DNA of 56,057 bases, filler included, from Jimgerdemannia flammicorona (taxonomy: Eukaryota): the NCBI GenBank assembly GCA_003990765.1. It is 2 parts of 2 records of this genome, joined end to end, with 100 filler letters (N's around TTAATTAATTAA, not from the genome) between each part and the next. Parts side by side here need not be neighbours in the genome. Positions count along the whole stretch, not along the records: positions 1 to 27,984 come from RBNJ01000588.1; 1 more part is not named here. The stretch is one strand, 5' to 3'. Positions 1 through 40,083 of the stretch are shown piece after piece. The notes under the pieces were generated by a model. That model was not told the origin of the DNA. It did no database searches and saw only the letters and a program-made list of their open reading frames with translations. Made by a program: the position numbers and the translations under genes. How positions within the stretch are numbered: the stretch's first letter is position 1; the number at the start of each line of letters is the position of its first letter.

Positions 1-69
1 TTTTTTTATAGTCACTTGGACTCCGCCTTTATTACCAGTCTATGAATAAATATACATCATTCCGACCCA

Positions 70-3000
70 CTATCCAATCCCTACTGGGGGGCCTCTCCCT
101 ACTTCCTCATAAATGAAAATCACCCTTTCACTAACTACCCCCACTCTCCCCCCACTTTGCCCACAGATTTTCTCTACCAAGTGGTACCTCTGACCACCCT
201 GCATCCCCCAACCCAGCCACCAGCCTGTTAAGGTATCTTCCATAAGTCTATGCCATCGCAGCAGCTGGTCCCCCAAGCTCTGCCTCCTCCCATCCTCAAA
301 AACAAATAGCCAATGACTGGCCAACCCCACCCAAATTGCCAAAGCTCAACTCAAAGTAAGCCACTCCTTCTCTATCCTCCCTACCAATCTAACCCTCAAG
401 TCCTCCCATCATCCCTGTACTTCATCACTCCTACTCCATACCCCTAACAATCCCAAATTGTCTGCCAAAAATCCCCCAACACCTCACACTCTCCTAGCCA
501 ATGTTCCGGTGTCTGTATATAACCCCCCTCCTACCCTACATTATAGCACTCCTCACAGTTGAAGCAACCCCCTATAACCAGGTGCCTCGAGCGAAAATTG
601 AGCATAACGTTCCTCTGCAGCACACGCCACCAGACCACCCAGTACTTTGGTGGCAGCCACACTCTCACTGCAGCGCTCTAGGTCCAAACACTATGCCAGT
701 TCCACTCCTCACCAATTCCAGCTCCTTGCCAACCGCTAGGCCACAGATCCTGGCCTGGTCCCCTTTGGCATTCCATTCCATCACCAATGTCAAACTCAAC
801 TAAGAGAGTACCCCCCAGCAGTATACGGTCCCATCTCTACATCGCTGGGTCCCAATCCTCCTCACCTTTATTCCCCTGCCAACAAATGCCAATGCGGTGC
901 GCTCCTTTGGCAATTCCCCACCAAAATCCTTTATATCGTAGTTGGGCAGTGTTCAGAAGCCCAACCAAGGAGAGGAGATCACCAGTTGAGCCCCTTGGCG
1001 ATGCCTGCCTCTCCCATATCTTCTGTAACAGAGGAACCCATCCACCTCCTCTCAACTCCACCGCCCTCTTCAGCCACCATACTCTCAGGCAGTGTAACCG
1101 TTTTGGGAAGTCAACCAGCCCAAGACCGCCTCTTGCCACTGGTAGGGACAAGGTCTCCCAACTAATCTGACTCCGCCTGCCAGCCCAAATCCATCCCTTT
1201 GCCAACTTCAACAATCTCTTCACTACCCAGGCTGGGAAGTCCAGATGATATGCCAGGTACTACAACTTTGGCAGCCAGTAGACATTCAAAATCGAGACCT
1301 GCCCTGCCAGAGAAAAATGTCTTCCCCCCCAACTCCGCAGAGCCTCCTCCCAGATTCCAATCCTCTGCTCCTACCAAAGCTTGGGCAAAACTGACCCATA
1401 GACTGACAAGTAGATACCTAAGTACTGTACTGCTTCACCGGTGGGGACAATTGTTCCTATAACCTCCCCTCCCACCAGGCCATTACCTAGTACCATCGTC
1501 TCACACTTATGCCAATTCAGCTTAGCTCCAGAATGTTCCTCATACCACTCCACAGTCCTCTTGAGCTCCTCAACATCAGCAATCGAACCCAAGCCCACCA
1601 CCATGTCATCAGCAAAGGCCCCAACCTTCCATCCTATACCAAAGACAGAGAGCCCCACTATCCTCCGCCTAATCTAGTCCATAAGTGGTTCCAGGGAAAG
1701 AGTATACAAAATGGGGGACAATGGATCCCCCTGGGGCACTCCCCTTCCCAAGGGGAATGCTACCCCTCTATGTCCATTACATATGAGTACAGCTCTGCTC
1801 CCTTCCAGTAGGCTGACCATTGTTGACCGGAATTGATGCGGTACCCCCATTCTATCCAAAACTTTCTCCAGCCAGACTCTCTACACCCAGTCGTAAGCCT
1901 TCTCCTGGTCCAAGAAAACTAGACACCCATTCAGTCCACATGCCCTCACCCCTTCGATGATGCCATGCACCCAGGCAGTGCCATCCCTGATGAGCTGACC
2001 ACCCACAAATCCCCTCTGCTCAACACCCATGACTTGCTGGACCACCTTCTGTAGTCTTGCCACCACCACCTTAGTTACCAACTTTCTGTCTATATCTAGC
2101 AGCATTATTGGCCACCAGTTCCTCCAATCCTCCCGCCTTCCTTTGTTTTTGTAGAGCAGTGTCACCAGCCCAAGGTCCTGTTCCCCCACCCATCTACCTG
2201 TCCGTAGAATAAGGTCACACATCACTATCATCTCTCCCATCACCCCTGGGACTTCAACCATTCGCTTCCAAAAGTCCCAGGGCAGCCCATCCTCCCCAGG
2301 TGCTGTACCAGATGTTGTTGCGGCAAGAATCTGGTGGATCTCATCCTCCTTTATAGGCATCACCAGGTCCTCTAGCCCTTCAACTTGTGGTGGGTGCCAA
2401 TCCTCCAATGTTCATTCAATTGTAGCGGCATCTACCCCACCTTCCTCCTCACTCCACAATCCACTCCATCTCTCCTTCAGTGATCCAAGAATGTCCTGTA
2501 CACCATGCACCAGTACACCGTCAGAGTCCAATACCCCTTCCCACCATTGCTGGACCCGCCTTGCCCGAAGGGCTCTTGTAAGAAGCTTGGAAGGCCTCTC
2601 TCCTTCCTCTAGATCCTGCCAATGAAGCCGTGCTGCTAAGCTCTGTACCCTTGCCTCTTCCTCCTCCCGCAGCACCTGTTGAAGTTCCCCAACCTCCATT
2701 TTTGCCCTTATTAATCTCCAATCTCCTTTGCCCTCCAACATCATCAGCCTTGCCCACTCCTCCAGGAGCCTTGTTAATCTAGCAGAGGCCCAGTGCACTC
2801 TTCATTTACGCTGCTTCCCTGCCTCCTTGCCAGCCTCCTTCCAGTAAATCCTGGCCATTTCCTTCATCCTCATCCACCGAGTCCCAACTGCGGCCCCTTC
2901 CTGCCTCCAGTTCTCCACCCTCAGCTGAATGTCTTTAGCCCACTCATCTCATTAGGTCTTGTCATCTAACAAAGAGGAATTGAGGTGCCAATGTCCAGGC

Positions 3001-3724
3001 CCATCCCCACTTCCCCCAAAGCACCCCTGTCCCAAAAGCCCCCAGTGATCCGACCATGGACACCATTCCACCTCCAATGATTTCCAAACATCTAGTCCCC
3101 AGCAGCAGGCTGTCAAAATCCAATCGATTCTAGTCCCCAGACCCCCTGCCCAATGGGTATAGACCCTCCTACTCCCCCAGCACTCCCTACCAGCATCCAA
3201 TAGTGCACTCAGCCTCTCCACTTCCTCCCATGCCACCAGCCCTCCACTCCTGCTCTCAGCACCTTGGTCTCCATCTGATCTATCCAGCAGTATATCCCTA
3301 ACCATATTGAAATCTCCCCTAGCACATCCATCTCTGCCTCCACAAGTAATCTACTCTCCTGTAAGCCTTTCACCCAATCGACCCTATCACTCTGTACCGC
3401 AGGGCAGTAGCAGGAATCAACCATAACTGGCTCCCAGCCTGCCCTAATCCACTCTCCCCAGACCAGTCTCTCCCCCCAGCACTGTACATTCTGTATCTCC
3501 CCTCTGCCTTTCCTAACTAAAATCCCAACCTTGCCCTTCCAAATCGCCGCACCTCCCCATTCCTTCGTCCATTCTAACCTATCAGAGTTATCTTCGCACT
3601 AGACATCCTGCAAGAGGAAGAGATCGGCCTCCAATCCCTTCATCCAAGTAAAAATGTTCCTATGTCGAGAAGCGCCCCATAACTCATTCACGTTCAAAGA
3701 GAAAATATTGGTTGTACTGTTCAT
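70..3724 (-). pseudogene. LINE ORF2: APE endonuclease + reverse transcriptase + C-terminal Cys/His module
   Basis: Endonuclease motifs SLNVNEL, LFLLQD, TRIDWIL, WSDH. RT motifs APGEDG, LDQEKAYD, GVPQGDPLSP, AFADD, QYLGI. CxxC...H...C near 480-560. Broken by stops and frameshifts. Confidence 0.92.
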
Positions 3725-3757
3725 ATTGATGATATATGTGATGTTGTCAATCCGCCT

Positions 3758-5782
3758 CTACTGTTCTATGCTCATCTCCTCCTGTGCCCTGTCCAAATTA
3801 TGTTCCACAGCCACCTCCTCCTCTTCAGCCCTCTGAGCCTCCAATCCAGCCAGCAGTTCATTCATCTCGCCATTGGCCTTCTCCTCAAACTCCTCTCAGT
3901 ATTTGATGTATGCTTTCTGCCAGAGCTATAATCCATGTCACTTGTTCCAGCAGTATTCAGCCCTTTCTCCAGCAACAACTGCCATCTCCTCCTCCCTCTC
4001 CTTATCCACCTCATATCCTTCCTCCTCCAGGTACACCGCAAGAATTTCCGCCTTCAATGCCTTCATCACGCCATCTCCCTGCAGTATTCCCGCCCAATGC
4101 TCATCACTCATCACTCACAAGTCTACTTCCCCTAACTCTTCCGCTGCTAGGTTATTCATCATCCGGCACATCCAAAGCAAGTTCCCCACCTCTTTCCCCC
4201 CTGGAGTCGCCAGCCTCCCTCCATCCAACATTGTGGTGTCAGCTCCAGCACTTGCAGACTCATCCCATACTTCCGGGACATCCACCAGTTTCTCCTTGCC
4301 ATCCACCTCCACCTGTCCCCCATATGCCACCTCTGGAACTCCAAATTGCACCTGCTGGGCCCCTCGCATTGGTACATCTTCCACCACCCTATTCCGGGAA
4401 GCCGGGCCACACCTGATGAGAGGGGTAGGGGTAGGGGAACCCACCCAGTCCTCCTCCCACACCTCCAGTGTACCATCCGCATACAGGTCCTTCCCCGCCT
4501 TCTTCTTGTCCTCCCCCACCTCCTTCTTGTCCTTCCCCTCCCCCTCACCGGCCCAGACACTTGCTCCAGCTCCCCCTGTGCCCTTCACCTTGCTCGCCTC
4601 CCCCAGTGGTCCGCTATCCAGCTTGGCCAACAACTCCTTCTGCTTCTTGTGCCCCTGAGCCCTTTCCCACTGCTCCTTGGTCACTCGAATCTGCTTTCCA
4701 TCCACCACCTCCAAGTGTGTCACCTCTTCAAAAGCCTCCCAAGCCTTCGCTTGCCTCTCCACAGCCCCCCCAAGCTCTTCAAGTGCTTCCAGTAAATCCT
4801 CCTCCTCGTCCTCACTCCCCTTCACCCTTGTCACCTTACACAGGATCGCTCCCCAGACCATCACTGAAGGCCAATCCCTTGCCTTCCCAGTGGCTTCCTT
4901 CCCAGCCAGCCAAATCCTCACATCCACATCACCAGTCCTGAGCAAGGTCCCCTCCTAGACCCTGAACCTGATATCGACTACCTCGCCATATTCCGCCATG
5001 AAATCCTCAACCCTCTTCCTTGTCTCCATTACTGTCACCATCGGCACTCCCTTCACCAGCAGTTGGACCACTCTGGGGTCCCACTTCAAGCACCGTGCCA
5101 TAGGAACACATACCTCCCCAACCACTAATCCAACCTTCAGCGCCTCCTCCAGTGGTGCCACCTCCTCAAAACCCACCTCCACTCCTTCCAGTCCCTTCAA
5201 AAACTTCACAGATGCTGCACCTGCCACCTGCTTAGCGATGAGCCCTAGTACCATTTTTGCTGTCACTGCCAGGCCCCGGAAGCATAGTGTGACCACGAAT
5301 GCCGAAATCGATTTCTTGAGTAATAGAGCCACCGCCAGACCCATTACACTATCTGCCAAGTCCCCTTGCCTTCTAAGCCTCAGCCACTCAGCCTCACCAT
5401 CAGCCGTCACATCTGGATTTTTTTCCAGATCGACAGTCCCAACACCATTAGCAGTCACACCCTCCCCAGCCACTACTCCCGCAGCTCCACCACCCCCCCT
5501 TCTAAGGGCTGCACCCCCTGGCACCATCTCCTTCTCAGTCCCCTTGCCCTTCTTCAGCCAGCCCTCCAGCCCCAATGCCTGCTGCCTCCCCTTCACCATC
5601 TCCATGAAGCTTGCCCTCCCAGATCCTGATCCTCCACCACCTCCTCCACCCCTTCCATGTCCACCTGCCAGCAGGCCCCTCATACCGCCCCCCAGGCCTG
5701 GCCCCCTCCCCACCTGCTGCCAGTCGAAAGCGCTAGGGCCGCTCTGCCCAGTACGCACCTCAGATTGTCTGTCGGTTGCTAT
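3758..5782 (-). pseudogene. LINE ORF1 (Gly-rich N-terminus, RRM-like core, acidic coiled-coil C-terminus)
   Basis: ORF-track pieces 4955-5758 and 4115-4945 are in one frame. The probable start ATG is mutated to ATA at 5782. The stop at 3758-3760 lies just before the ORF2 ATG. A homologous segment occurs at 17159-17614. Confidence 0.8.
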
Positions 5783-5866
5783 GTTGTTAGTCTCTTTTCG
5801 CTAAAAACATTGTCGAAAGTGCCTTCCAAAGGTTGTGTAACCTGAATGGTACTGGAAAGAGCCGTC

Positions 5867-8800
5867 ATTGGATATTGTCTATAGCGATATGCCAATTCAA
5901 CTAAACTGGTCTTAGTTTCTTAAACTTTCTGAAATATGGAAAATCCTGAACATCCAGAACTAGTCCAAAAAAGGACTTTGGTTGAGATGTCAATCTAATC
6001 TTGAAATCAATAAGCATAGAGGATGTACTCCATATGAAATTGATCTTGACCATAAGAAAACAGTCTTTCAGAATATCCAGAACTTCCAGAAAACCCTTCC
6101 AGAACTATATAACAGTTACTCTAAAAAGTAACCCTCTTACAACTTAGTAGCAGTGGTTTACAATCTAATTCTGCTTCAAGATACTTTCTCACCCTGCTAT
6201 AAACTCCTCTGCAAATTCCTATAAGTTGGTATAAAGCCCAACCTCTGAACTAGAATTTATTCTGAACCATCTGACAATCTGAAGAGAATTGAACCTGATG
6301 TATAAGGACAATTTGACCTCCACACCTGTAACAAGTGAGACAAACTTCATTCAAAGAAAGAAGTACTCCAATTAAATCAGCAAATAGGCAAAACCCTATT
6401 CACCAAACTCCTTACACTATACCCAGCAAGTCAAGATGAAAAAGGTCTTATAGAAGCCTTCTTTACTCTTCTCAACAAGAGTTTTGTCAGCTCTACAAAT
6501 CTGAGCAACCTAGGACAACCAGCAGCAGTCTTTCTAGCCTTAGTTCCTCATGAAGCCTAAGTCTCTGTAGCTAAGTGGCTCAACTCTACTGACTTTCACT
6601 GTACCAGGACCAAGACTGCATTATACTACTGATTCCAGAACAGCAAGGCCCACCATATTCTTAAAGAAGAAGCAAGAGAAACTCTTCATCAACTACCTGA
6701 CCCTGAATCTGAAGCAGGCCCTGCTACAGCCCTACCTGAATCTGAAACCAATACTGAACCAGAACTTGACTTTGAATTAAGTCCATCTGAAATCAGATAT
6801 ATAACTGACTTTGTCTACTTTGATGTCAAGCAAACCCAATTACATAGAGACCAAACCAAAGAAGAGGAGGAGTATCTCAGTGAATTCAATCTCAGATATA
6901 CCATTGAAGGAGATACACCTCCATCAGGCCAGAATACACCTATACAATAACAAACAGTTATCTATCAAGCCCTCACTCCAGACCCACAACTACTACTCTA
7001 GTAACTTATACAGACCCAAAGAACCCCATCACACTCTGTACCAGTACCTCAAGTAGTACCAGTAACACCACTACCAGTAGTCCAACTGTCTCCAGTGAAC
7101 AATATGGCAAACTAACAGATTCTAGACCTTATAGCTCAAGTAGCTATAATGGCTACAACCATTACTGCCCTAGCTGAACAGATCCAACCTACTAAAAATC
7201 TGAGTCTACCTACCTTCAATGGTATTGCACAAGAAGTCCAAAGCTTTATTAGTGTAGTTGACACCAACTTTGAAGCCAATCAATAGACAAATGAGTAAGT
7301 TGCTGACCATGTTCTGATAAACAATCAAGACCACACTCTGGAACAACTCTTTGCTACCACTACAGCCTATGTCCGCTAAGTTGTTACATTCTTCTGAGGA
7401 TCTGCCAAAGAATAGTAGTGAACTCTTCCTGAAAAACCCCTCACATGGGACACCTGACCTGTAGTAGTTGCTCAGAATATAGCAAATAATGCCCCAGGAT
7501 ATGGAGCCCACTCTGCAGCCCCTAGACTCAAACAACTCATGATTGCTCAATACCATAGTGAAATGATGATTGCTGAATCTTGAGTAAAACTCCACAATCT
7601 GAAATTTGATATGTATGGCAAAGAAGAATTTGAAACCTTCTGTACAAAACTCAAGTCACTCTTGAATACTATTGGCCTAGGATATATTACCAATGATGAA
7701 GCATAAAATGGTATAAGAGCAGACCATTTATTTGATGCACTATCTGAATGGCTTATTAGAAAAATCTGAGAACAAGGCCACCCAGTTAGTTGTGATCACC
7801 AACAATAGTGCCTGGCAAGAATCAAGACTATGGTCAAGCAAATCCTAACAGCTGGACCAATTCTTCCCTGAAGACAATTCAACAACAAGAAAAAGACTTG
7901 GACCAAGAAAGAAGAACTCAAGTATGAAGCATCCCGAGCTCCCTCCACATCCACCTCTTGGACACCCAGAAATCATAAACCCACCCAGCCAAGTACCTTC
8001 AAGAAACTAACTGAAGGAGAAAGGAATGAACTTTGAAGAAGCGGAGCATACTTCTATTGCCAAAAGACAGGACACATGGCCAGTGCCTGCCCTAACTGAA
8101 AACTCCAAACAGCAATACAAGCAACTGTTACCACTCTGCACCACCTCAATAACCTGACTACCAGAACACTAGACTTTGTCAAGTTAAGGCAAACTGCTAA
8201 GGCCCCAACCAAAGGAAGTCAAAAAGCAGCTGGATATAACCTATATGCTGCTGAAGAAGCTACAGTTTCCAACCAAGAAGTTAAGCAAGTCTATATAGGA
8301 ATCAGCATCCAAATTCCTGAAGGACATGTTGGAAGAATATACTGTCACAGCAGCCTAGCATTGAAAGGACTCTCAGTAGAAGAAGGAGTCATTGACAAAG
8401 ATTATACAGGCAAAATTATTGTCCTTATCTGAAACCATAGTTGGATACTCTTCAAGATCTCTATTGGTTTCTGCATTACCCAGATCCTATTTGAGAAAAT
8501 TGAGTCAACCCTGACAGTTAAGGAAGTCCCTGAACTACTACCTACCATCTGAGGATCCAAAGAATTTGGCTCATCAAACAAGGCTCCAGCCTAATCTATC
8601 ATGAGCAAAGAAGAACAATTCTACAAGAAAATCAAAGACAGATATGTACCAAGTGGCCAATGTCCCCATGGCATTGAAATGTACTCTTCCCGAATGATTG
8701 ATGATTGCTTCTCTTGTGTCAATGAACTGGCTCAAAGAAGAACTAACCAAAGAAAAGCTCCTATAACTGAAATTACTACCATTAGATCAGACAAACTGCT

Positions 8801-11005
8801 TACACTTAAAGCTTTTGTCAACTGAGTATCTGTCAAGATTATGATAGACAATAGTATCTCAGGCAACTTCATCAATAAAGAAATAGCCAACAGACTCAAG
8901 GTCTTCACCTCTCTGGTATAATAAACTCAAGCAGTTGCCATAGCTGATGGAACCTCACATGTTATTAGCAAGGAAGTCCACAACCTACCCTTCTGAATTG
9001 GTGACTATTGAGTACATATTACCCTCCAGATCATACTACTTCCTGACAATGAAATCATCCTTGGGACTCTATGGTTGAAATAAGAGAACCCCATGATCGA
9101 TTGGGTAAACCATTCTCTGACCATCAAGAAAGGATGCCATAACTTCAAACTGTAAGGCAAAAAGGACCCACTCAACTCTAGTGACCCTGGACCAAAGATC
9201 ACCCACATCAACAAGCTACAACTCAAGAAATTGGTCAAGAAATGCCCTCTCTTTGCTATCTCCATCTGTCCATCCAAAGGAGAACCCAAGAACTCTGAAG
9301 AAGACTTTTCTAAAGTTGACAGCCATATCAGACCCCTACTCCAGAAAGTCCAAGACATATTTCTGAACTGAACCACAGAACCACCTGTACCTGTCATTAT
9401 TAATGACCAAGTAGAATACAAAGTTAAACAAATCCTTAACAAACACAGCTACAAGAACCATCCAAATGGTATAACAACACCAGAACAAATTAGAAGGCTC
9501 TGATGAGGACGTCGAAAGCTAAGAAGGGGAGAGTTATAAGCGCACAACCTCCAAGCTACCAAAATCGCATAGCATCCTCAGAACTAATTTGGAAACCACA
9601 TGTGAGACTACAAAACAAGTTACTGAAGAGATCATCTGATTACACAAAATATGCCAGCAAGTATGAGAATCCACTGCTAAGATACAAGAATACTAGAAGA
9701 AGTACTACAACCATAAGACTGACTCTGAACTGCTATAACTAGTTTGGTTTACAAAAGGAAACCAAAAGTACCAAACTCAAATCGAGATAAGAAGAACTCT
9801 ATCTCATCTACCAAAAGGTTCACAAACTGCACTTATCAACTCAAGATCAAGATATACTACAACTATACAAGACCTCATTACTTAGCAGAAGCAAAATGTA
9901 TTTGAATAACTCTGTTTGCTCTATCTGTGTCATCTCTGTTGGAGAGTAACAGATGCTTCATCTGAACTCAAGAAAGCCAACATCATCGAAACCAATCTCA
10001 AGTCATACACATGACAGATATTACTACTAGAAATTGCCTTGGATTATAGAAAATATTATTTCTGAGAGGTTCAAACCCCCAGCTGTAACATTGGGAGCCC
10101 TTACCCTAGATGAGAATGGCCAGTCCTCACAAATGTGCCAGCAGACTAAAAAAAAAGAGAACCAAGACCTGTTATTCTTGTACAACTACTGCCACCAAGG
10201 ACAGCCTTAATCTTGCAAGAGATAGAAGTAATGACACCTTGAAACTGATGATATCAGAAGTCAGAAAACTGCTCAGACTTTGCTAGTGATAATGTCATCA
10301 ATAGTGATGTCATCAAAGACTAACCAAATAGCACCTAAACCTATAAATAGCTTATCAGTCATAGTATAGTTAGATTAGCCCCATACAATATGACTATAAA
10401 CTGACTCAGCATTCAGATATGTCAGATCACTCTTATACTATGTGACTGTATTCTGACTCAGCAAGGCACTTAGTACTATATCTATATCTAGCATAGTCCA
10501 GATAGCCTCTCACTAGTATAAATACCCCCTTCCACAGATCTCAGAATCTCAGACCTGAACAATCCAAACATAGCCCCTGAGTACTTCCCCACAATATTCC
10601 TTCATATAACTACTCCTAGTATAGCAATATCATGAATAGCGAATAAACCTATTTAATAACCCACAACCCACTCTTAAGTAAATCTACTCTCTATTAGGTC
10701 CCACTTCTAACCCCATCACGAAATTTCCTAATTGGGTATTGTCTGCAGCGATACGCCAATTCAACTAAGCTGGTCTTAGTTTCTTGAACTTTCTAAAATA
10801 CAGAAAATTCTGAATATCCAGAACTAGTCCAAAAAAGGACTTTAGTTGAGATATCAACTCAATCTTGAAATCAATAAGCATAGAGGATGTACTCCATATG
10901 AAATTGATCTTGACCATAAGAAAACAGTCTTTCAGAATATCCAGAACTTTCAGAAAACCCTTCCAGAACTACATAATAGTTACCCTAAAAAGTAACCCTC
11001 TTACA
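5867..11005 (+). mobile_element. Ty3/Gypsy lineage A copy A1: non-autonomous deletion derivative (gag-dUTPase-PR retained; RT/RH/IN deleted)
   Basis: Partial 5' LTR 5867-6140, PBS ~6144, zinc knuckle ~8050-8092, dUTPase ~8170-8577, protease ~8845. At ~9362 it jumps to the pre-chromodomain sequence, and at ~9473 to the pre-PPT sequence. PPT AAGAAGGGGAGAG at 9521-9533. Colinear with 39790-46574. Confidence 0.92.
9535..11005 (+). repeat. 3' LTR of A1 (1471 bp) with a variant U3
   Basis: Starts TATAAGCGCACAACC (TGT>TAT) after the PPT and ends CTTACA. The first ~30 bp and ~10288-11005 match the A2 LTR; the segment between does not. Confidence 0.88.
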
Positions 11006-11148
11006 GCTTGATATAGAGGATATGATCAATACTATGACCCATCAAATCCAAGAACTTCAAGTATAACTAAAATAGCAGAAAACAAGAACTATAAGTACAT
11101 TATATTCTGCTATAGTACTAGTCAGTTTTAAGTTACTTAAGTCAGATA

Positions 11149-12739
11149 CAGTGACAGCCAAAACTGTAACAATGTTTAGTTATTTTTTATATATAATTAT
11201 ATTATAGCTTCAATATAAATACAATAAAATCCAAATTTTTACCATTAATAATATAGTATCTTAGCTTTTGAATGGTATATTTTTTATTTTATTTAGATAA
11301 ATATAGACATTAATATAACCATTTTAAGTTATATTACCATTGTTACAGTTTTGACCCTCTTGGCCATCCAAACCTGTTTGGGTTCACCACGTACCATTAA
11401 GTTGGGCTATAATTATCCACTTTTACTACAGTGTTGTTTCAGACATTCTTTACCACTCTATGGTGTTTTGCCATCATTTTCAAGCAATGAAAAAGCTTTC
11501 TGTTGACGTTCATAACAACATCATCCACTTACTGCAATCCAGTTTATCCACATGCAAGATTGCCAAAGAAACCAATGTGAGTGTGATGACAGTAAACCAC
11601 ATAAAAATGATATATTGCAACAATATTCCTTCATCAGAAGGTGGCTGTCCAGCTATGTTTTCAGCCCAGGATGAAGTATAGATCACCCACCAAGTTACAA
11701 TTGGCAAAGCAGATAATGCCACCAGGGTCGTAAAAGCCCTTCAAGAAAGTGGCAAAAAGGCAAGCCTTAGTATGGTAAAATGAACGCTCCGAAAGGCTGA
11801 CCTCAAAGCATATGTGAAGCAAAAGAAATCACTTTCACTATCTCGCTACATAAAGGCATGCTACGAATTTGCTACAAAATACAAGCATTGGACAGTTGCC
11901 AACTGGAAAACCATTGTATTTTCCGACGAAATGAAGATTAACTATTTGGGCTCCGATGGATGCGAATGGATATAGCATAAATCGGGTGGTGGTGAGGAGC
12001 TCCAACCGAACCAGGTGACCAGAATACTAAAATTTGGTAGCAGATTGTTAATGCTTTGGGGATGTATGATGTATAAGGGTATTGGATATGCATGCCAAAT
12101 CAAAGACCAAATGAATGCCAAATTATATACTAGTATTCTTGATGATGAATTGCTTCAAATAATCAAGTATTACAAATTTAATCAAAAAAAGATCACCTTC
12201 CAACAGGATAATGATTCCAAACATATGTCCAAAATGGCATGTGAATGGTTCAAAAACAACTCTATCTATACGTTAGACTGGCCAGTGCAATTGCCAGACT
12301 TCAACCCCATCGAATATTTATAGTGTGAACTTAAAAAACAGTTGAATGCATATGACAAACCACCCAAAGGAATGCTGGAATTATGGGAGTATGTACAGCA
12401 TGTATGGAATAACATTCCTAAAGATGTTTGTATCAAATTAATTGAAAGTATGCCCAGGTGCATTGCAGCAGTATATAAAGCCAAAGGTAGATATGTTAAA
12501 TACTAAATAAAAATAAATAAGAGGTTTGGATAACCAAGAGGGTCAAAACTGTAACAATGGTAATATAATTTAAAATGGTATCTATATTTATCCAAATAAA
12601 ATAAAAAATATACCCTTCAAAAGCTGAGATACTATATTATTAATGGTAAAAATTTGGATTTTATTGTATTTATATTGAAGCTATAATATAATTATATATA
12701 AAAAATAACTAAACATTATTACAGTTTTGGCTGTTACTG
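11149..12739 (+). mobile_element. Tc1-family DNA transposon with ~225 bp TIRs and TA target duplication
   Basis: TA at 11147-11148 and 12740-12741. Ends CAGTGACAGCCAAAACTGTAA / TTACAGTTTTGGCTGTTACTG. Inverted repeats ~11149-11376 and ~12522-12739. Confidence 0.96.
11487..12506 (+). pseudogene. Tc1 transposase, DD34E, ~339 codons with 4 in-frame stops
   Basis: HTH-like N-terminus, then IVFSDE, FQQDNDSKH and PDFNPIE, with 34 residues between the second D and E. Stops at ~11679, 11781, 11972 and 12321. Confidence 0.93.
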
Positions 12740-12903
12740 TACCTTCAATAGTTATTAAGGAGGATTATCTACAGATATATGGATCTTCCAGTTGGACCAA
12801 TACTTTGAGCTTATAAAAATGGAAAAAGATATACAAGTCCAATTTGCCACCACACTTCTTCAAGAGAATACAACTATTTGGTAGCACAATCATATTATAA
12901 TTA

Positions 12904-14095: not shown

Positions 14096-16975
14096 TCATT
14101 ATAATTACATCTATATACTTATATATATAAATCAAGAATTGAGAAGCTTTCAAGAGAGCCCTTCATAGGCAGTTCAAGTCTACTAATACTACCAAGCTAG
14201 CCAGAGATAAGCTAGTGAACATCAAGCAACTCAAGTCTGTGCAAAACTATAATACACAATTCCTATCAATTCTACTTAAACTACTAGTAATAGTAGAGGA
14301 TGAAAAGATAGACTACTATATCTAAGGCCTGAAAGGAAACACATAAGTCAAGGTTGAGCTAGAAGAGCCACAAAGCCTTGATAAAGCTATAAGAATTACT
14401 AATAGGTTTGATATTATCACTTTTGGCAACTACTTTGAACCAAAATACCATAAGAAGAATTACTTCAAGAACTACTACAAGAACCAACCAAGAACAGTTG
14501 GCCCAGTATCAATAGACTTAGATACTATGAATAAAAAGAATATCAAGCTCACCTCTAAAGAAAAGAACCACCTGAAGAAATCCAGAACCAGTTTCTTTTA
14601 TTACAAAATAGGACATATTGCAATCAAATATTCTAAGAAGACTAGTGAACTCTCAAGATCAGTCACTGTATTGTCCAAGGATACATCTATCAACCCCACC
14701 ATCAGTCAACTCAAGCTCAAGATTAAGAAGCTTTATTTGAAGGCCCAGGCCCCTTAATATCAAATAGAAGAAGCTATTGATCTTGATCTATACTCTGTCA
14801 AACAAATCACTATCTCAGCTAAGGACTGAACTCTGATACCTACTGGAATTGCAGTTCAATACTATAAAGGATATTATATCAGAATTGCATTATAATTAGG
14901 ACTTAGTGTCAAACATCATTTAGATGTAGGTACTAATGTTATTGATCTAGACTTTTGAGAACAAGTTCAAGTTCTACTTATCAACCAGAAGGATCAAGAC
15001 TACACAGTTAAGGAAGGAGACCAAGTTGCACAAATGATCCTAGAAAAAGCCAGTCAACTCAAAATTACAGAAGTCCAAGAACTCTCTGAAACCAAATGAG
15101 ATTAAAAAGATTTTGGCAGTACTGATCAAGCAGTAAGTCTTAGTGAAAATCAAGCTTAAGCTATGCTCATTTTAAAAGGCCTAGTCAAAGAAAAAGAAGT
15201 TTAAGTACTCATAGACAGCAGAGCCACAGGGAACTTCATCAATCAGAACCTCATCAAAAGCCTCAAGATCCTTATCAAACCTGTACCCAAGAATAATAGT
15301 ATAGTCACTGCAGATGGTACTCTGTACTCCATCAAGTCAATTGCCACCAAATTACTCATCAAGATTCAGAAATATTAGGAATAAGTAGACTTTGAGATTG
15401 TACCACTAGGAGATCGTAACCTGATCCTAGAAAAACTCTGGCTTACAAAACATAACCCAGACATTGAATGGTGTAAGAATGAAGTCACTCTACTTCAAGA
15501 TAGAGCCAATATTACTATTAAGACAGACAAGACCATGAGCAAGACCCAGATTGCAATACTGTCAGCTATACAGTACAAGAGAGCACTTAAGAAGGCAATG
15601 CATACCTTTATTATAATAGTCCATCTCAAGAAATAAAACAAGAGACTATCAGTCAATAAAAGTATCAAGTTACTGCTAGAAGAATTCAAGGATATCTTTC
15701 TAGATAAGCTACCTAGTCTACTGCCTATATGAGAAGTTGATCATAAAATCAAACTGACCCCAAGAGCTGTACCACTTAAGAAATATATACTACATATTAC
15801 TACTCAAAATTAAAATAGTCAAGAAGGAACTAGAAGAACTACTTGTATAAGGAGCTATCTAGCCAAGCAAATTTCCTTATGGCTCACCAGTCTTATTTAT
15901 AAAGAAGAAATATGGTACCCTGTAAATATATATAGACTATCATGCACTCAACAAACTTACTGTCAAGAATCACTACCTACTACCCTTGATTGATCAAATC
16001 TTTGATGCTCTCAAGAATGCCAAATACTTCACCAAGTTGGACCTCATATCAGAATACTACCAGATCTGAATTAAGTTAGAAGATATTCTCAAGACTGTAT
16101 TTATGACCCCCTTTGGACTCTACAAATTCTTAGTCTTAGCATTTGGTCTCACTAATGCATCTACTATATTCCAGACCCTAATGAATAAGATATTCAAGAA
16201 CTAACTATTTATTTTCCTATTAGTATATCTCGATGATATCCTGATCTTTAGTGCAACTAAAGAAGAACACCTCTAATATATTTAAATAGTTCTGGAGATC
16301 CTATGAAAATACAAGCTTTATATCAAGCTCAAGAAGTGTAAATTATTTAAGGAACAAGTTGAATATCTTGGCCACATTGTCTCTGCATAAGGAATTCAAG
16401 TAGACCCATATCAGATAGAAGTAATTGAAGATTAGTCCATTCTGTCAAACCTCACAGAACTCTGATCCTTCCTTAATCTAGCTGGCTACTACTGCTGCTT
16501 TGTCAGAAACTTCTCTGGCATTACCAAGTCACTGACTAACCTCATAAGAAAGGTCCTGCACTCAGACTACTATGTATCCTATACCTGAGATCTCTTCTGT
16601 CAATAAGCTTTTCAAGAACTCAAGAACTACCTGATCTATGCTCTAGTTCTGCATAATGCAGATTAAGGCCTAAAATTAACAGTTACTACTGATGGATCGA
16701 ATTTTGCCATTGGAGTAGTCCTGTTATAAGATGATGGCAAAGGACATCATTTTATTACTTTTAAGTCCTATAAGTTAGTCCTAGCTGAACAAAAGCTAGC
16801 CACCCATGAGAAGGAACTACTGGCAATAATATAAATATTAGATTACTGGCAATGCTATCTAGAAGATATTGAGTTTGATGTCATCAATGATTATCAATCT
16901 CTCAAGTATATCAACACTAAACCTAATCTGTCATATCTATAGCCAAGTAGAGCCTCAAGCTTCAAACCTTCAACC

Positions 16976-18300
16976 TGAGACTTTTCTGGAGCCCAACTGG
17001 TGGCTGGGCCAGTGGCTGAGAGAGAGACTACAGATGGGCTCTCTGGGGCTAGTGGGGTGACTGCTGGTGTCTTGGGAGATAAGAGGAAGGTGATGATGGC
17101 AGCTGGCTCTGGAGAACTAGTGGTGCATCCTTTTTTCCACAAATCAGTATTGACATGAGTGATCTTGGTAAATTTCCTGGGATTGGGTTTGTCTGCCAGA
17201 GAGATTTTATGGCTAGTGGGTGAGGAGATTACCAGTGTAGAGTCCCTGAAGTTTATTCCATCAGCAGAGGCAGTAGAGATTGGCTTTGTGGAGGTAAAGG
17301 CCCTGGAGAAAGGGTTGGTGGTCAAGAGCATCAAGGTTGGAATGGAGAGGTGTCTGAGGTGGGATCCATATATAGTACATCTGGTGGTTGAAGGGATACT
17401 GACTCTTGAGAGGCAAGAGACTAAGAGGATAGTGGTAGAGATACTAGCAGGCTTTGGTGAGATGGTCAACTTTGGATTTATGTTCTGGGAGGGGACTAAG
17501 CTGAGGAATGGCAACTGTGAGATTATGGTGAGACTGGAGGACAAGGAGGCCATGGGGCTAGGAAGGGACTGGCTGGAGGTAATTCTAGTTGAAGAACAGA
17601 AATACAAGGTATAGAAGAGGAAAGAATCTGAACAAGAGGAGGAGGAATTACTACTTGCTCTGGAGGAGAGAGAGGCCACCAAGGAATTGCAATAGAGGAG
17701 ATGAGAGGAGTATACCAAGGACTGGATTTGGATTCTGACAGATGGGAGAAGGAAGAGATGATAGAGAACTAACTGGAAGTGCCTGCAGATGGTTCTCCAG
17801 GGTGCAAAAATGAAGGAAGAAGTGAGGGCAGAGATGGCCAAGAGTCAGATGGAGGAGGTGGAGATAGCTGAGGTATCCTTTTCGTAACTGGGGGGTGTGG
17901 AGACCTCAGCTCATATGCTGGTAAAGGAGAAGTGGGCTGATAAGGAGGAGGTAGGTGAAGGGGGCTTTGAGGAAGTAGTTGAGGTAGTACCTGAGATACA
18001 GGTGGAGGATATTCATATAGCAGAAGCAGTGAATGTTCATTGGAAATGTTCAGAGACAGGAGAGGTGGTGTGGCTGGAGAAGAATACTGAGGAGGATGAT
18101 CTGGTAGATGTGGCCTCTGATGTGTTGGCAGACAGAGAAATACTACAGAAGCTGAGTAGAACTCCAAGGCCTACTACCTCTAGACCTCTGGTGATTACTG
18201 CTGATGACTGGTATCAGGCAGTACTTGAGGAACTGGCAGAGGAGGATATCAAGGAAGTGGATATGTTTAATGGATCTCAGGAGGCTTGGAAAGGATTCCT
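16976..18300 (+). pseudogene. ORF1 fragment of a second, related L1-like family
   Basis: 17159-17614 (VEIGFVEV...RCLRWDPYIVHLVVEG) aligns with 4955-5758 (VEVGFEEV...RCLKWDPRVVQLLVKG). Boundaries are approximate. Confidence 0.8.
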
Positions 18301-20478
18301 CAATATCACACTACAAGGGCCAAAACTGGTAATAGTGATAGTGGTGGTATATCCAAGTAGAGTTCTTGGTCCTCATGCCTAGGGATATCCATTCAGATAA
18401 GGGGTCCTTCAAAGAGGTCAGAGAGGCCTTGGAGCCATTGGTCTGGGTTGTCATCCAGGAGAGAGCTCCAGTGGTGTTCACAGTCAGTAGACTTGAGAGT
18501 AATCCAGGAGTTAACTTCTTGGGCTACCTTGATCTCTAGCTCATCAACCTCAGAGAAAGAGAGGTTCTGGAAATCCTTCAGTTAGATGTAGTTGAGGTTG
18601 GGGATTACAAAGAGTACATGGCACATAATTTGATAGACCTTCTTGGCAAGTCTTTGCTTGTATCTGTCCAGGTGGGTCCAGTCTGAGACCTGGTCAATAG
18701 GTAGGCTGTTTGTATGTTGAAGAAGCTGGTGGCTGATTTTATATTTATGCCAGATCTCTAGATGGCTGGTAGCAAGATTGGCCCTTTCGATGAGTTCATG
18801 GCAGTCAAGAACATAATGCCCTAGATTCTGGCTGGAGAGGTTAAGGGCCTCAGAGCAGTGATTTCTTCCTTGAATGGCAACCTGGATATGTCTGAAGAGG
18901 TGATCAACCTGGCTTGGGAGGAGCTGGCTATGGTGGGCAGTTTGGTAGCTGGTAGTGGGCATTCTTGTCTTGTCTTTTCTTTGTGAGGAGAGGGGAATAA
19001 GAGTTGTGGGGTATTCTTGCCTTGGGTATTTATACTTATTCACCTATCTGGTATGACCTTCTTTTGGTCATACTTTCTAGCCAAAATGTATGACCTATTG
19101 CTATAAGTGGGGCATATGCTAGTCATATGAGAAAATCCTGATTTCAAAGATATTGTCACTTGTAGTTGTAGTTATACAGGGTTAACAGGTCTTGGTCCTC
19201 TTTTTTTTTGTCTAGTTAGTGCTTTTGTAAGGACTGGCCATCCTTATCTAGGGCAAGGGCTCTCATTGTCACAGCTGGGAGTTTGAACTTCTCAGAAATA
19301 GAATTTCTTATAATTCAAGGCAATTCCTAGTAGCAATATCTGTTATATGGATGGGCTTAAATTGGTTTTGATATCATTGGCTTTCCTAAGTTCCATATGA
19401 AGTGTCTATCATCATTCAGTAGAAATGATACAGATGGTGTGAAATAGAGTTGTTCAAATGTGTTTTGCTGTATTATGTAAGATTGTTCTTCATCTGATTA
19501 TCTTCTTATTGGTTATCTATGATGTTTCCTTTTTTCTGCAATGTTCAGTATTATATGTTTTGGATAAAATATGTAGTATCTTGTTTGCTAAGTGCTCTGA
19601 TTCTTTAGAGCTGCAGTTCCTTCCTTTGCTGGGGAGTGAGTGTTTCCATATTATCCTAGAGGGCTTCATGTGTATTCTCTAGAGCTTCTTCTTTTTTCCA
19701 GGTAGCATCATGGGTGGGGTAACCATTCCACTTGATGAGAAAAACCTGCTTGACTGTTTTGGGGTATTTGTGGACCTTGTGGTCAAGTACTTCCTCAATT
19801 TTGAATTCCTTATGATTATTGATTCTAATTGGGAGTAGTGGTGAAACTATATACTTGGAGAATGGGTTCTATAGTAGTCCACCAATTGGCTGATATGGAA
19901 TACTGGGTGTACTCAGATATTGTAGAGAAGTTGCAACTTATAGTTGACTTTGCTGACTTTTTCCATAATCTTGTATGGTTCAATTCTTCTAGCACAGAGT
20001 TTCTTAGCAGGTTGTTGTGCTAGGGTGTCTGGATGGAGGTGATCTGTTCTAAGCATGACCCTGTTACCAATGTTATAGGAGACTTCTCTTCACTTCAAGT
20101 TTGCATACTTGGTCTAGTAGTCTTGTGCTTCTATAAGAGTATCTCTTGTCATTTGAGTAAGGTCAGAAATGGTCTTGGCTAGGTCTTGGGCTGCTGGGAC
20201 TACTAATTTCACAGTAGTACTCAGAGTCCTTGGGTGTTGACCATGATTCAGAAAGAATAGAGTCTTCTTTATAGAGGTTTGCTGGCTGTTATTATAAGCA
20301 AACTTGGTATGGACTAAGTACTTGTCCCAATTATTCTGCTTGTAATAGCAGAAGATGCTAAGCATCTGTTTGAGAGTCCTATTAGTTCACTCAGTTTGAC
20401 CATCAGTCTGGGGGTGGTAGGCAGTAGAGAACTTCAGCTTAGTTCCATGAAGAGAGAAGAATGTCTTCCAGAAGTTGC
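18300..20478 (-). mobile_element. 3' part of Ty3/Gypsy chromovirus lineage D (integrase end, chromodomain, 3' region with an extra ORF)
   Basis: [14 protein letters not shown] at ~20390-20432 and KFAYNNSQQ. Chromodomain EFKIEEVLDH...FLIKWNGYPTHDATW at ~19700-19810. Confidence 0.88.
18310..18962 (-). pseudogene. Accessory ORF of lineage D, homolog of the LTR-encoded protein family; function unknown
   Basis: TATAAATACCC at 19024-19034 (minus), ATG at 18962. The frame continues past the TAA at 18582 as LKDFQNLSFSEVDELE...DDNPDQWLQGL. It aligns with 54.9-55.5 kb. Confidence 0.75.
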
Positions 20479-20582
20479 TTTTTTTTTTTTTTTTTTTTAT
20501 AGTCACTTGGACTCCGTCTTTATTACCAGTCTATGAATAAGTATGCAATATCACCACCCACTATCCAATCCCCCTAGGGGGA
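20479..20582 (-). mobile_element. ~100 bp 5'-truncated 3' stub of the L1-like family
   Basis: T20 followed by ATAGTCACTTGGACTCCG..., matching positions 1-90 and 36499-36600. Confidence 0.9.
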
Positions 20583-21582: not shown

Positions 21583-23039
21583 ATGTCACACCAGGTTCCG
21601 ATAAATCTAGCACTAAGGCTCTTACCGCATTTTGACGACCTTCCAAGAGAATATTGGAGCAACGTCTTTCGCCTTAAGCGCCAGTTCCCTTACGACAGCG
21701 AACTCAAAAAAAACCTGAAACAATTGAATCCTAAACTGGTGGCTCTAGTTCGGTACCTGGTTTGGATCCCCTATAACTGCTTTGTTAAGATCGAACAAGT
21801 GGGCCAAGGCGATTTTACGAACGGTAAGTTTCAAAATTATACATATATCCCTCGTGTATCCTGTGCGCTTAACTCATCACCTTATCCACCACAGTTTGGA
21901 AAGGAACGATTTCAAACTACATGTCCGAGGGTGGCAACGCACACGATGAATGTTTTGCCCTAAAAGAAATTGACGAGTCCCTTGTGCAAGAGGTTGGTTT
22001 TTTCGATTGTGATTTCTCTGCGTATACAGGAATATCAAGGAAACCTTTGTGTTGTCAATGACTTATTGGATTCTTCGGTCTTGGTAAATGCGTATAGGCT
22101 ATGGTGTATACAATTATTGCGAACTCCGTGAATATTATGGGCCTTACAAAGCACCCTAAATCTGGAAAGTATTTCGTCATTACGGAATTCCTCGAAGGAG
22201 GCAGTTTGGAAGATAGATTGAGTCAGCATGCGCTAGACAACTGGGTAAACATTTTCGAACAGGCCTTCGAACTCTGTTTGAATCTAGCTCACCTCCACGA
22301 CTTTGGATTGATACACTATGACCTCCACCCTGGCAACATCGCCTTTCGAGCCGCAGAGAGTACGTCTTCTCTGATGATGGATATCGGGGCCGGAGAAGTC
22401 ATTTCCAACTCTGAAAATGAAAACGATGGCTGCTATGGTCGAATGCCATACCTCCCACCAGAAGTATTCAAGGGCAAGCCATACACCATGGCGTCTGATG
22501 TTTACTGTCTCGGAACACTTCTGTGGCAGCTCGCCAGCCACGTCCCACCACGCGGAACAGCCGGCGCTCTGTTCCGAGCAGACGGGATGCGTGAGGACCA
22601 TGTACCTGGCACGCCAGTCAAATATCAAAGGATCATTGACGCATGTTGGAACGTTGATCCAGCCAACCGGCCCACTGCAAAGGAAGTTAAAGACCGCCTA
22701 TCGCGCCTACGGTGCTCGTACGACCCCTTTCTCCCGGTTCCAAAGTATTCGCCTCAACACCTACTCGTCTGGTTCAACCTCCATTTCCGAAACTGTCCGT
22801 CTCGCAGAGCCAAGGAACACGTCGCACGACGGATGGCTGAACACCAGCGAGATCTCGACGCGGAACAATGTGAGAGTATCGGAAGCCTCACCCTGGTCGA
22901 TGGGATATCGCCTGCCATTGTCCCATCAATGGCATATCGAAGCCGGTATTACACGCGACAACAGCTGAAAGAATTCTCTTGGCCTACTTCCGTCATCCAA
23001 GAGGCTCAGTGGATTTTTGCTCCGTCGAAGGCGTCATAA
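21583..23039 (+). CDS. Tyrosine-kinase-like protein kinase, 3 exons: join(21583-21823, 21895-21992, 22098-23039), ~426 aa
   Basis: GT-AG introns 21824-21894 and 21993-22097 restore one frame. Motifs: WIPY...VGQGDFTNVWKG, FALKE, ITEFLEGGSL, HYDLHPGN, DIG, YGRMPYLPPE, SDVYCLG, CWNVDPANRPT. Confidence 0.88.
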
Positions 23040-24419: not shown

Positions 24420-25117
24420 ACGTGTTCAGCGCTTCGATTGATTGTGCCTCAGTAGTTCACCACCGCGAGTTCAGTTCAAGAGAACTCGATTTCCATCGCA
24501 ATAGTGTAAACTGCATTCCGTCAGTTAAAACCTCTATTGTTTACATCGAACCTTTTCGACGCAAGAAAATGGGGTGCTTCGGGTAATAGAGATGGAAGTT
24601 ATTGGCCCCCAGAAGACAGACTAGCGTGACATAAGACTTGTAACCACAAACCCCGAAGACCATTTTTCAGCGCTTCGATCGGTTGAAAGACTCCGGCCCT
24701 GTTTTTCTGCAATCACAATAGTGTAAACTGGATCCCGTTAGTCACAACCGCTATTGTTTACGTCTGACCTTCTCGACGCAAGAAAATGACGTGCCTTGGG
24801 TGGTGGAGATGGCAGTTGTTGGTCCCCCAGAAGACAAACTAGTGCAACATGAGAGGGACTAAAGGAATTGCATTCCGTTAGTTCCAACCTTCTCGACGCA
24901 AGAAAATGACGCGTTTTGGGTAATGGAAATGGCAGTTGTTGGTTCCCCGGAAGACAGACTAACGCGACATGAGAGGGACTAAAGGAATTGCATTCCGTTA
25001 GTCACAACCTCTATTGTTTACGTCCAACCTTCTCGACGCAAGAAAATGACGCGTTTTGGGTAATGGAAATGGCAGTTGTTGGTTCCCCGGAAGACAGACT
25101 AACGCGACATGAGAGGA
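24420..25117. repeat. Imperfect tandem repeat, 4 copies of a ~120-140 bp core
   Basis: TCGACGCAAGAAAATG...GAAGACAGACTA recurs at ~24555, 24773, 24893 and 25033. Confidence 0.9.
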
Positions 25118-26857
25118 GCTCAGGGGATGAGTGCATCAGAGGCTGGAGTGAATCAAGAATATATTTGTAGAGGCAAGTAAAACGATGACTTGTACCCAAC
25201 GTGTTGAAATACCCAATGCCTGGTGTATCAATTTACACAATTTACACTCTCTGATTTTGTTGCTCGCGGTGCAATGCTAATCAAACTTTTAATTATGCAT
25301 AGTTATCTCCTAGTTGTAAGTTTCTTTTATTATTTTTATTATGACCGAAATGGGGGACCTTACGTTAAGTGTGGGGAAACTTACAGACCTCCGGAAGGTT
25401 CCATAACCCGATTGAGAGAGGAAGAGAACACTGTGGTTTGCACAAGAACCCCTACTCGCGACGATTCCGTCTTCCAAGCTCTGTGTTCTGTATTTTTGGA
25501 ATCCTTATACAATAGAGATAAGGGGGAGGGTGATCTTATAATCGGAAAGCTTCTAATGTTGGTCGAAAAAACGGTAAACCTGGCAATGGGTTTGTGACCG
25601 AGGGGATCTCACGATCGGAGAGGACGTATACCAAAGTTTTACGAATGTAGATATATGACCTCGCCAATCCTTTGTTGCGCAATATTAATGTACCTGTTGC
25701 GTCATACAAAAGAAAAATCCATCGTTGTCATGTACGAACCATCATGGTCGGAAATTAATGATTTGATATTGGGTTGCGTGTGCAGGCTGGAGGAATTTGA
25801 CCGTTGGAATTGGAGTGAGCGACAAAATAAACGATGGAACGACGCCAACAACACTTGCGGAACATTGTTGAGAACGTAACTCTTGCCACCGCCCCACAAA
25901 CATTTTTTTTTATTTAATCCTGCCCACGAGGATAATCCTCCACGAGCGACATTGGAAATTGATCGTCTGGTCGGGCATCCCGCCCCATTTAGGTGTGTCG
26001 AACGCAAAGAGCCACGGTTGGATAGAAAGAAAGGGACATCCCCTGCCTACAGCCGAGGGGCGACGGGATTTCGAGAAAAGGCCGATGCACGTAGTTATGT
26101 TTACCTATTTGTGTGCTTTTTAATATATTTGGCAACGTGGCGATATCCCAATCCTGTGCACAGACGAAATGTCAGGTATCCTGGCTGTTTTAGCTCGCCG
26201 GTTCTCCTCCACAGCCTGTGTCACCATGGGCATGGATATTAATTTTTTGGATTCACTGACCGGCTCTTCGTCTTTCCAACCTTTCTCTTGGCGAGGTGTC
26301 GGGGGGTTGGACCATTCATTTCCAACAACCCTTTCCAAGTGGCTGCCATGTTTGTGCGCAATTAGTTGCTTGATCCTCTACTGTGTATAGAGTGTGCATT
26401 TTGTGTTGCCAGATCGATCGATCATTCTATATTTGTATCCATTTTCAATTATGATCATCAATGTGTATGTGTATAGATAGGCCCCATGACCCAGACCAGA
26501 CAGTCCATTTGTGACTTGCGGAAATTACAGTGACCATACCAGGTGTGTGAAAAGATCCACACACACGCCGGATGTCAAGACCAACGACCCAAAGTGCGCT
26601 TCGTGACGTGAGGAGGGAGGATCGACGGGAAAAATTTGCTTGTGGATGCTTCATTTTCGGAAGGAATTTCTACATGCTCTCCAAAAAGGGTTCTCCAAGA
26701 CGTTGCTGGGACGAGAGGGGGCAATCGTTGTTGCAAGTTGCGTTGTGCTTGGGTCGGACACAACATGGTTAGTGTGTATGGTGGCTCTGGAAGGCTCTAA
26801 TCATTTATTTAATTAATGGAGACGTTACAATTGGGATCCTGTAATTTCCACCATTTC

Positions 26858-28084: not shown

Positions 28085-28242
28085 AAAACAAATTTTTTTT
28101 TTTTGTAAAATTTTTACCAAAGGTAGAATTATTATATAAAAAATTATTGGTAAATTTTTTTTTAAAAGCTATTATGATTTTAAAAGTTATAAACTTTTAA
28201 AATCTTGCCTCTAAATATAGGTGCAAAACAGTCAAAGGGATA

Positions 28243-40068: not shown

Positions 40069-40071
40069 ACT

Positions 40072-40083
40072 TGGTAGCAGCGG
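40072..40083 (+). promoter_or_regulatory. Primer binding site, probably initiator tRNA-Met
   Basis: TGGTAGCAGCGG lies 3 nt after the LTR. It is one mismatch from the complement of the common eukaryotic iMet 3' end (TGGTAGCAGAGG). Confidence 0.75.

Follow-up and report, generated by a model that had tools for sequence, protein, structure and literature searches.

Recombination between elements is a known source of new LTRs. In soybean, 'LTR swapping' by inter-element recombination between SARE and SNRE elements, reportedly described by Du and colleagues in 2010, is said to have given rise to new and often non-autonomous lineages, and the maize CRM recombinants, reportedly described by Sharma and colleagues in 2008, are likewise said to have arisen by inter-element recombination that exchanged parts of LTRs and UTRs. 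U3 can also harbour a gene, as in MMTV, where sag, the 'LTR ORF', is a protein gene located inside U3. In Saccharomyces cerevisiae, Ty1/Ty2 hybrid LTRs are ascribed to recombination during reverse transcription, and these hybrids propagate (Jordan and McDonald 1998, cited in PMC6894440 and PMC10787394). Subfamilies of crapaud, a retrotransposon of the Podospora anserina complex, are described as differing in U3, which makes up the LTR's 5' half, with R and U5 conserved and with recombinant LTRs among them (PMC10787394). Template switching of reverse transcriptase (RT) between elements has been invoked for complex LTR-retrotransposon insertions in the Triticeae (PMC1950507), and the founding of new lineages by RT-linked recombination between families of greater or lesser distance is presented as well documented (PMC6894440).

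Here we describe a locus of Jimgerdemannia flammicorona (assembly GCA_003990765.1) that compares with these systems. It lies in a stretch of 56,057 nucleotides (the window), which is a nest of decayed retroelements. One of them, A1, ends in a 3' LTR that is a mosaic, as the sequence-only reading of the window had proposed: its two ends belong to family A, and the patch between them is in part related to the 3' end of a chromovirus like D, another resident of the window.

Anatomy of the A1 3' LTR

Family A consists of dUTPase-bearing chromoviruses of the Ty3/gypsy group (Metaviridae). The Pfam matches of A3 (Table 1) follow one another as gag(CCHC)-(dUTPase)-PR-RT-RNase H-IN, the domain order of a chromovirus, and the C-terminus of its integrase carries a chromodomain (Pfam Chromo, E 5.7e-16), as does that of D (E 2.2e-10); the half-chromodomain left in A1 gave no Pfam Chromo match. 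A3 is delimited as an LTR element by the termini TGTAAG...CTTACA, a 5-bp target site duplication (TSD; ATTGC) and an adjacent polypurine tract (PPT) and primer-binding site (PBS). The A-type 3' UTR measures about 410 nt and the A LTR about 2.07 kb. Since the in-frame stops in A3 pol are TGA and TAA, and since 230 of the 247 variable places among the variants of metagenome run X1 over the A1 region are transitions, the A copies are ordinary decayed elements under the standard genetic code. With A2, A3 and D all present in the window, both parental families of the mosaic are found in one genome.

Outside its 3' LTR, A1 is a reduced copy. Its 5' LTR is cut on the left side, at 5866/5867, by LINE B1, a minus-strand element with weak RVT_1 and endonuclease matches and a poly(T) at window position 1. 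Because the poly(A) end of B1 coincides with the first bases of the window, the missing U3 part of this LTR should be found immediately to the left of the window. The remnant is followed by a PBS-like sequence common to A1, A2 and A3. In tblastn searches with the gag, dUTPase-PR and pol sequences of A3, the internal region was found to contain gag, dUTPase (Pfam match at 8100-8429), protease and the opening residues of pol, and then two deletions relative to A3. The second of these, at 9462/9463, left only the first half of the chromodomain and removed the pol stop and the bulk of the 3' UTR.

The 3' LTR starts with TATAAG (TGTAAG in A2 and A3) and finishes with CTTACA; the partner of its TSD falls outside the window. 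A1 is 90-95% identical to A2 and A3 at 9540-9559; by 9600-9619 the value is down to 50-70%, and past 9620 it stays at background (25-50%). Homology to family A returns at about 10255-10277 and continues, at 85-86% identity, as far as 11005. The sequence-only reading had the LTR keep its first ~30 bp and everything from the last codons of an ORF onward, with ~720 bp of foreign DNA in place of ~1.3 kb. Its 3' part stands, and so does the replacement as such; the retained 5' piece, however, is about 50-85 bp long, and the lengths become about 650-690 bp of foreign sequence for about 1.25 kb lost. Adjacent segments of this LTR thus differ in family affinity, the ends being A-type (85-95%) and the central block D-type (78-79%). 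The 3' part of U3 contains TATA-like motifs, read from the sequence, at 10340-10351 and 10517-10524. In alignments of A1 with A2 and A3 the junction zones of the patch are fuzzy, with only a few, ambiguous bases shared. No direct repeat (TSD) flanks the patch in the aligned sequence, and neither of its ends is a donor terminus, the right one lying some 35-85 nt into the D-type LTR; a nested insertion followed by deletion would be recognised by a complete terminus or a TSD at the patch.

Table 1. Features of A1 and of the related elements in the window (positions along the whole stretch)
Feature	Position	Strand	Remarks
A1	5867-11005	+	decayed A copy with mosaic 3' LTR
A1 5' LTR remnant	5867-6141	+	last ~275 bp; 92.5% identical to 10731-11009; ends CTTACA
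A1 internal region	6142-9534	+	90.1% identical to A3 39793-43286
Deletion junction 1	9358-9361	+	A3 43287-45928 (RT, RNase H, integrase) absent; 4 nt common to both sides (blastn)
Deletion junction 2	9462-9463	+	A3 46035-46501 absent (467 nt)
A-type polypurine tract	9521-9533	+	counterparts in A2 and A3 align with it; directly before the LTR start
A1 3' LTR	9535-11005	+	1471 bp, versus 2064-2068 bp in A3
Retained A-type 5' end of U3	9535-9605	+	homology fades at 9585-9620; blastn stops at 9584 (A3) and 9605 (A2)
Non-A patch	9606-10254	+	~650 bp in place of A3 46625-47898; no A-family match
D-homologous block in A1	9885-10205	+	MAFFT-extended; D's sense orientation; 78-79% identical
Purine tract and TGTTA	10148-10174	+	A9GAGAA, 8 nt, then TGTTA; same arrangement in D
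A-type 3' U3, R and U5	10255-11005	+	identity to the LTRs of A2 and A3 85-86%
LTR gene remnant in A1	10255-10338	+	stop codon and about 27 codons before it
Counterpart block in D	19168-19475	-	between chromodomain (about 19805-19665) and probable LTR start TGTTAA at 19186
A2	28240-36501	-	both LTRs truncated
A3	38002-48638	+	LTRs 2064-2068 bp, 93.5% identical to each other
A LTR segment absent from A1	46625-47898 (A3 3' LTR)	+	1274 bp; most of the 365-codon LTR gene
A-family LTR ORF	46863-47957	+	365 codons; three stops in the A3 copy

The right half of the patch is related to D. In blastn, 9890-10189 aligns to 19168-19469, taken as its reverse complement, with 78.2% identity over 303 nt (E 1e-63), which confirms the earlier assignment of 9890-10190 to the post-chromodomain region of D (about 19165-19470, reverse complement; the chromodomain is the one scored above at E 2.2e-10). 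MAFFT carries the homology 25-35 nt past the TGTTA motif and, weakly, perhaps to about 10250, and the best conserved part is at about 10035-10125 (83-87%). As D lies on the minus strand, with an integrase tail (SH3_Tf2-1, E 5e-16, though decayed) and the chromodomain preceding the block, the match is in D's sense and downstream of the chromodomain, which ends about 180 nt upstream of the block. By analogy with A, with its 3' UTR and LTR of the lengths given above, the block probably represents a D-type 3' UTR, PPT and LTR start that now lie inside the U3 of A1; the LTR of D, judged from the single one seen, probably extends from 19186 to about 16934, where the pol of element C breaks off. A's own 3' UTR compared with the D block gave nothing better than E 0.67. 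As to other functions, no Rfam family came close to its gathering score when the block was searched for structured RNA, one of the 44 pairs in a two-sequence consensus fold was compensatory, and its differences by codon phase (27/24/16) have no clear periodicity.

No source was found for the 280 bp on the patch's left side (9606-9885). Positions 9620-9850 had been read as translating like an integrase tail, a claim left unsupported by Pfam, tblastn and DNA alignments alike. Translated in three frames, they have no match to SH3_Tf2-1 or any other integrase family in Pfam at E up to 10, whereas the equally decayed tail of D, as a positive control, is found at the E value of 5e-16 already given. 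The tail of D used in tblastn against this segment gave E 0.11 even with a database of 796 nt, and in local DNA alignments assessed against shuffles the reverse-strand control scored equally. One DNA match, weak at E 0.32, pairs 9684-9739 with 20126-20072 and is collinear with D, and low-stringency blastn and tblastx found matches as good elsewhere in the window. Because 9606-9885 is without a recognisable source and the integrase-tail reading fails, the donor is not simply the 3' end of D.

The segment that the patch replaced held about 343 of the 365 codons of the ORF in the A LTR, together with a TATA-like motif about 65 nt upstream of its ATG. This ORF is judged to be a real gene because the only homolog retrieved from the database (P0001) is open over 247 aa, is 66% identical and has the same C-terminus; P0001 has Q at two of the stop positions of A3. 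Counted by codon position, as a test for selection on the LTR gene, the differences accumulated between LTRs after insertion (25/9/39) are as biased as those between copies (35/23/46). A tblastx comparison of the A3 LTR with the rest of the window, which bears on a relation to the LTR ORFs of D, gave no match at E 0.01. Since A1 retains roughly 27 codons from the end of the gene, its state appears to be derived from a gene-bearing ancestor.

Related contigs in soil metagenomes

Logan contigs from four soil-metagenome runs (X1-X4, from three studies) were aligned to positions 9000-11300 at a likeness of at least 80%, and 2002, 396, 222 and 370 contigs aligned, respectively. The best run contains only 0.15 of the sampled 31-mers. 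The contigs are short, and individual pieces are listed for 32 of the 2991. In the four runs taken together, the whole patch is covered by short contigs that are 80-95% alike. In X1 no bin of the patch is empty: depth, which is not copy number, is 180-473 there, as compared with 326-818 for the internal bins (9000-9538) and 862-2972 for those of 10463-11001. The patch has about 70% of the depth of the internal region, and a single run has up to 25-27 distinct contigs at one position. Two variants lie in the patch outside the D-homologous block: the one at 9847 is found in 25 distinct contigs of X1 and 9 of X4, and the one at 9662 in 9, 4 and 4 distinct contigs of X1, X2 and X4. Elements like the D donor may feed the depth at 9885-10205, so that only pieces bridging a junction count for the chimera itself.

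Such pieces are few among those listed, two at the left junction and one at the right, with a further marginal one, and they come from three runs. The left junction is bridged by record 4 of X1 (9543-9682, gapless with 14 differences) and by record 26 of X4 (9415-9663), which joins it to the 9462/9463 deletion in a single contig. At the right junction, record 29 of X4 (10139-10308) crosses, and record 13 of X2 (10042-10283) touches it only marginally. The 9462/9463 deletion is bridged, again among the listed pieces, by record 9 of X2 (9417-9527), record 20 of X3 (9392-9535) and the same record 26 of X4. None of the listed contigs bridges the large RT-RNase H-integrase deletion at 9361, where canonical-type loose ends are seen instead. 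Loose ends with canonical A sequence also occur at 9566 and 10288, which shows the gene-bearing form to be in these runs as well.

Because diverged contigs span the patch, both of its junctions and the 9462/9463 deletion, A1 appears to belong to a multi-copy subfamily of A that lacks the gene and has a chimeric U3, and a scar confined to one locus is unlikely. Several copies with the same junctions, which the sequence-only reading had proposed as part of its own check, are what the bridging of both junctions by diverged contigs from independent runs points to. The mosaic U3 and the adjacent 9462/9463 deletion would both be traits of this diverged multi-copy lineage. The A1-type subfamily is without half of the chromodomain, and A1 itself is also without RT, RNase H and integrase; mobilisation of the subfamily was probably in trans. 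When metagenome contigs were scanned for two exact words, a 24-mer of the patch and a 22-mer found in four of the five LTR copies of the window, there were 0 matches, as in scans of viral contigs with the same 22-mer and a 17-mer; both results are uninformative on copy number.

Origin and meaning of the mosaic

How the A1-type subfamily was founded is best explained, we tentatively propose, by template switching during reverse transcription; what we infer is the switch itself, which way the sequence moved, and that both LTRs carry the mosaic. A subfamily of A would have exchanged the centre of its U3, retaining the 5' tip, whose end integrase recognises, and the promoter-proximal U3, R and U5. 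During minus-strand synthesis on A RNA, the RT would have jumped, inside U3, to a co-packaged D-like RNA, copied across the D-like U3 start, PPT and 3' UTR, and returned to A RNA in a second jump, close to where U3 begins. The nearby 467-nt deletion is perhaps a product of the same RT run. As the U3 of progeny comes from cDNA, the mosaic would have passed to both LTRs of all descendants, which were probably mobilised in trans. The patch is in sense orientation and collinear with D, and it spans the probable border between D's internal region and LTR, where the purine tract and TGTTA are conserved; the absence of a donor terminus or TSD at the ends of such a patch fits two non-homologous template switches. 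Against the proposal count the need for two such switches, the few and ambiguous bases of microhomology at the junctions, the left part of the patch for which no source was found, the exact-word scans, in which no longer copies turned up, and a D LTR start judged from one LTR. The exchange spares just those parts that an LTR requires, the 5' tip, promoter-proximal U3, R, U5 and 3' tip, and removes the gene.

The same multi-copy mosaic might instead have been made at the DNA level, by insertion of D-like sequence into, or ectopic recombination with, the U3 in the 3' LTR of a transcribed A master copy, later trimmed by deletions. Since progeny inherit U3 from their parent's 3' LTR, such a scar would spread by ordinary retrotransposition, and the multi-copy metagenome evidence fits it equally well. 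The dense nesting and many deletions of the elements in the window, two further ones being in A1, speak for events of this kind, and gene conversion between LTR subfamilies has been proposed in the account of crapaud (PMC10787394). Against it, at least two separate deletions are required, the patch ends away from D-like termini with only about 35-85 nt of LTR present and no TSD, and no progenitor locus was seen. We consider this origin somewhat unlikely, though a serious contender.

It is improbable that the A1-type U3 is instead the older state, with the D-like block as an ancient module shared by chromoviruses and the gene gained later in the lineage of A2 and A3. In favour of it, no other non-coding sequence is as well conserved as the block between these two families, which otherwise cannot be aligned. 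The roughly 27 terminal codons that A1 retains, however, belong to the part of the protein conserved in P0001; the block has no similarity to A's own 3' UTR, and A1 also lacks, at two other places, sequence common to A2 and A3.

A private rearrangement after insertion, with the metagenome contigs being alleles of one locus in related strains or sequence of the donor family, is very unlikely. The low share of sampled 31-mers in the best run, the few bridging pieces (3-4 of the 32 listed) and the empty exact-word scans of the larger contig collections would suit such a scar, but 25-27 distinct contigs at one position of a single run, at 80-95% likeness, would not, nor would a patch depth at about 70% of the internal region or bridging pieces that come from more than one study. 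An assembly artefact joining reads of different repeats is hardly credible even in so repetitive a region, as both junctions are bridged in independent assemblies.

The exchange can be read one step further, as one of functional modules and not of junk, in which the A1-type subfamily would have lost its own 3' UTR, through the 9462/9463 deletion, and its U3 gene, and adopted the 3' UTR-PPT-LTR-start module of another family. We regard this extension as rather unlikely. The D-type module of A1 sits about 400 nt further downstream, inside U3. Should the extension be true, and should the internal/LTR boundary shift with the choice of PPT, modules including accessory genes could pass from the 3' internal region to U3 or back, and from one family to another, and such swapping would explain the origin of LTR-located genes in J. 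flammicorona.

If the subfamily has truly spread, the LTR-borne gene would be dispensable in cis for retrotransposition, and constraint would be limited to the LTR tip and the promoter/R/U5 part. The A1 type would then offer a natural deletion mutant for the study of the LTR gene.

Comparison with known systems

The recombinants of soybean SARE/SNRE and maize CRM resemble A1 in exchanging parts of LTRs and UTRs, but they are plant elements. MMTV sag is like the gene of the canonical A LTR in lying inside U3, and is relevant only to what A1 has lost; it belongs to a mammalian retrovirus that has no sequence relation to A. The Triticeae cases are described as composite insertions that share an LTR, whereas in A1 the patch lies inside U3 (PMC1950507). 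Like A, crapaud is a fungal LTR-retrotransposon; its divergence is specific to U3, although it belongs to another fungal phylum and the passages on its recombinant LTRs name neither a donor family nor a lost gene (PMC10787394). The Ty1/Ty2 hybrids, as summarised in PMC6894440 and PMC10787394, share with A1 the joining of one family's U3 to the rest of another's LTR or element. Yet Ty1 and Ty2 are close relatives that swap homologous parts, whereas the A1 patch is non-homologous to the sequence it replaced, crosses the internal/LTR boundary of its donor and deletes an LTR-borne gene.

The A1 mosaic thus joins an already known pattern of U3 exchange between retrotransposon families. The view of U3 as a cargo slot, with which the sequence-only reading had concluded, fits what has been described for other families in the accounts cited (PMC10787394, PMC6894440) and is not a new principle. 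A1 adds an example from an early-diverging fungus to this pattern and leaves the general view of LTR elements unchanged. What stands out among the particulars of the A1 case is the loss of an LTR-borne gene together with a second PPT-like signal inside U3.

The gene inside the family A LTR

The long terminal repeat of A, a dUTPase-bearing Ty3/gypsy chromovirus family, encodes an acidic protein, and about 65 nt before the ATG of this gene stands a TATA-like motif. The protein matched no Pfam family, and its sole database homolog, P0001, is open over 247 aa and 66% identical. Within this gene, the two LTRs of copy A3 (38290-39391 versus 46863-47960) differ in a manner strongly biased by codon position (25/9/39). 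Such differences should postdate insertion; C-to-T decay, acting through composition, probably accounts for their bias. Alternatively, it may reflect gene conversion, or the two LTRs may not be sisters.

The putative LTR of element D

The stretch assigned as the probable LTR of D, a minus-strand chromovirus of another family, contains a TATA-like motif and, after it, long ORFs on the minus strand (153, 133 and 316 aa), and gypsy element C is broken off at its end. These ORFs had no Pfam match, and tblastx detected no resemblance between them and the gene in the A LTR; they could represent a different LTR-borne gene, or could be an artefact of composition.

Other elements of the window

The LINE family is GC-rich and has poly(A) ends, with weak RVT_1 and endonuclease matches. 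A probable Tc1/mariner-type transposon lies 135 bp downstream of A1, its terminal inverted repeats being 175-235 bp long and 91-94% identical. The kinase ORF is perhaps a host gene fragment amid repeats.

Features located in the window
Feature	Position	Strand	Remarks
A LTR gene, 365 codons	46863-47957	+	A3; within U3 of 2-kb LTR
A LTR gene, second A3 copy	38290-39391		other A3 LTR
A LTR gene, A2 copy	~35615-36501	-	
D LTR, putative, 2.25 kb	16934-19186	-	GC-rich
LINE copy	1-5866	-	interrupts 5' LTR of A1
LINE copy, two pieces	36502-37999 + 48639-51310	-	adjoins truncated end of A2; divided by A3
LINE 3' end fragment	20479-20581		truncates D at 20479
Tc1/mariner-type DNA transposon, putative	11144-12744		terminal inverted repeats around weak DDE_3 match
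Gypsy fragment with dUTPase (C)	14746-16933	+	family other than A
Gypsy fragment with dUTPase	51635-52177	-	another non-A family
Tandem repeat, unit ~120-140 bp	24495-25128		4 copies
Tandem repeat, 35-bp unit	54482-54702		at least 5 copies
ORF with protein kinase domain	22098-23036	+	Pfam E 1.6e-20
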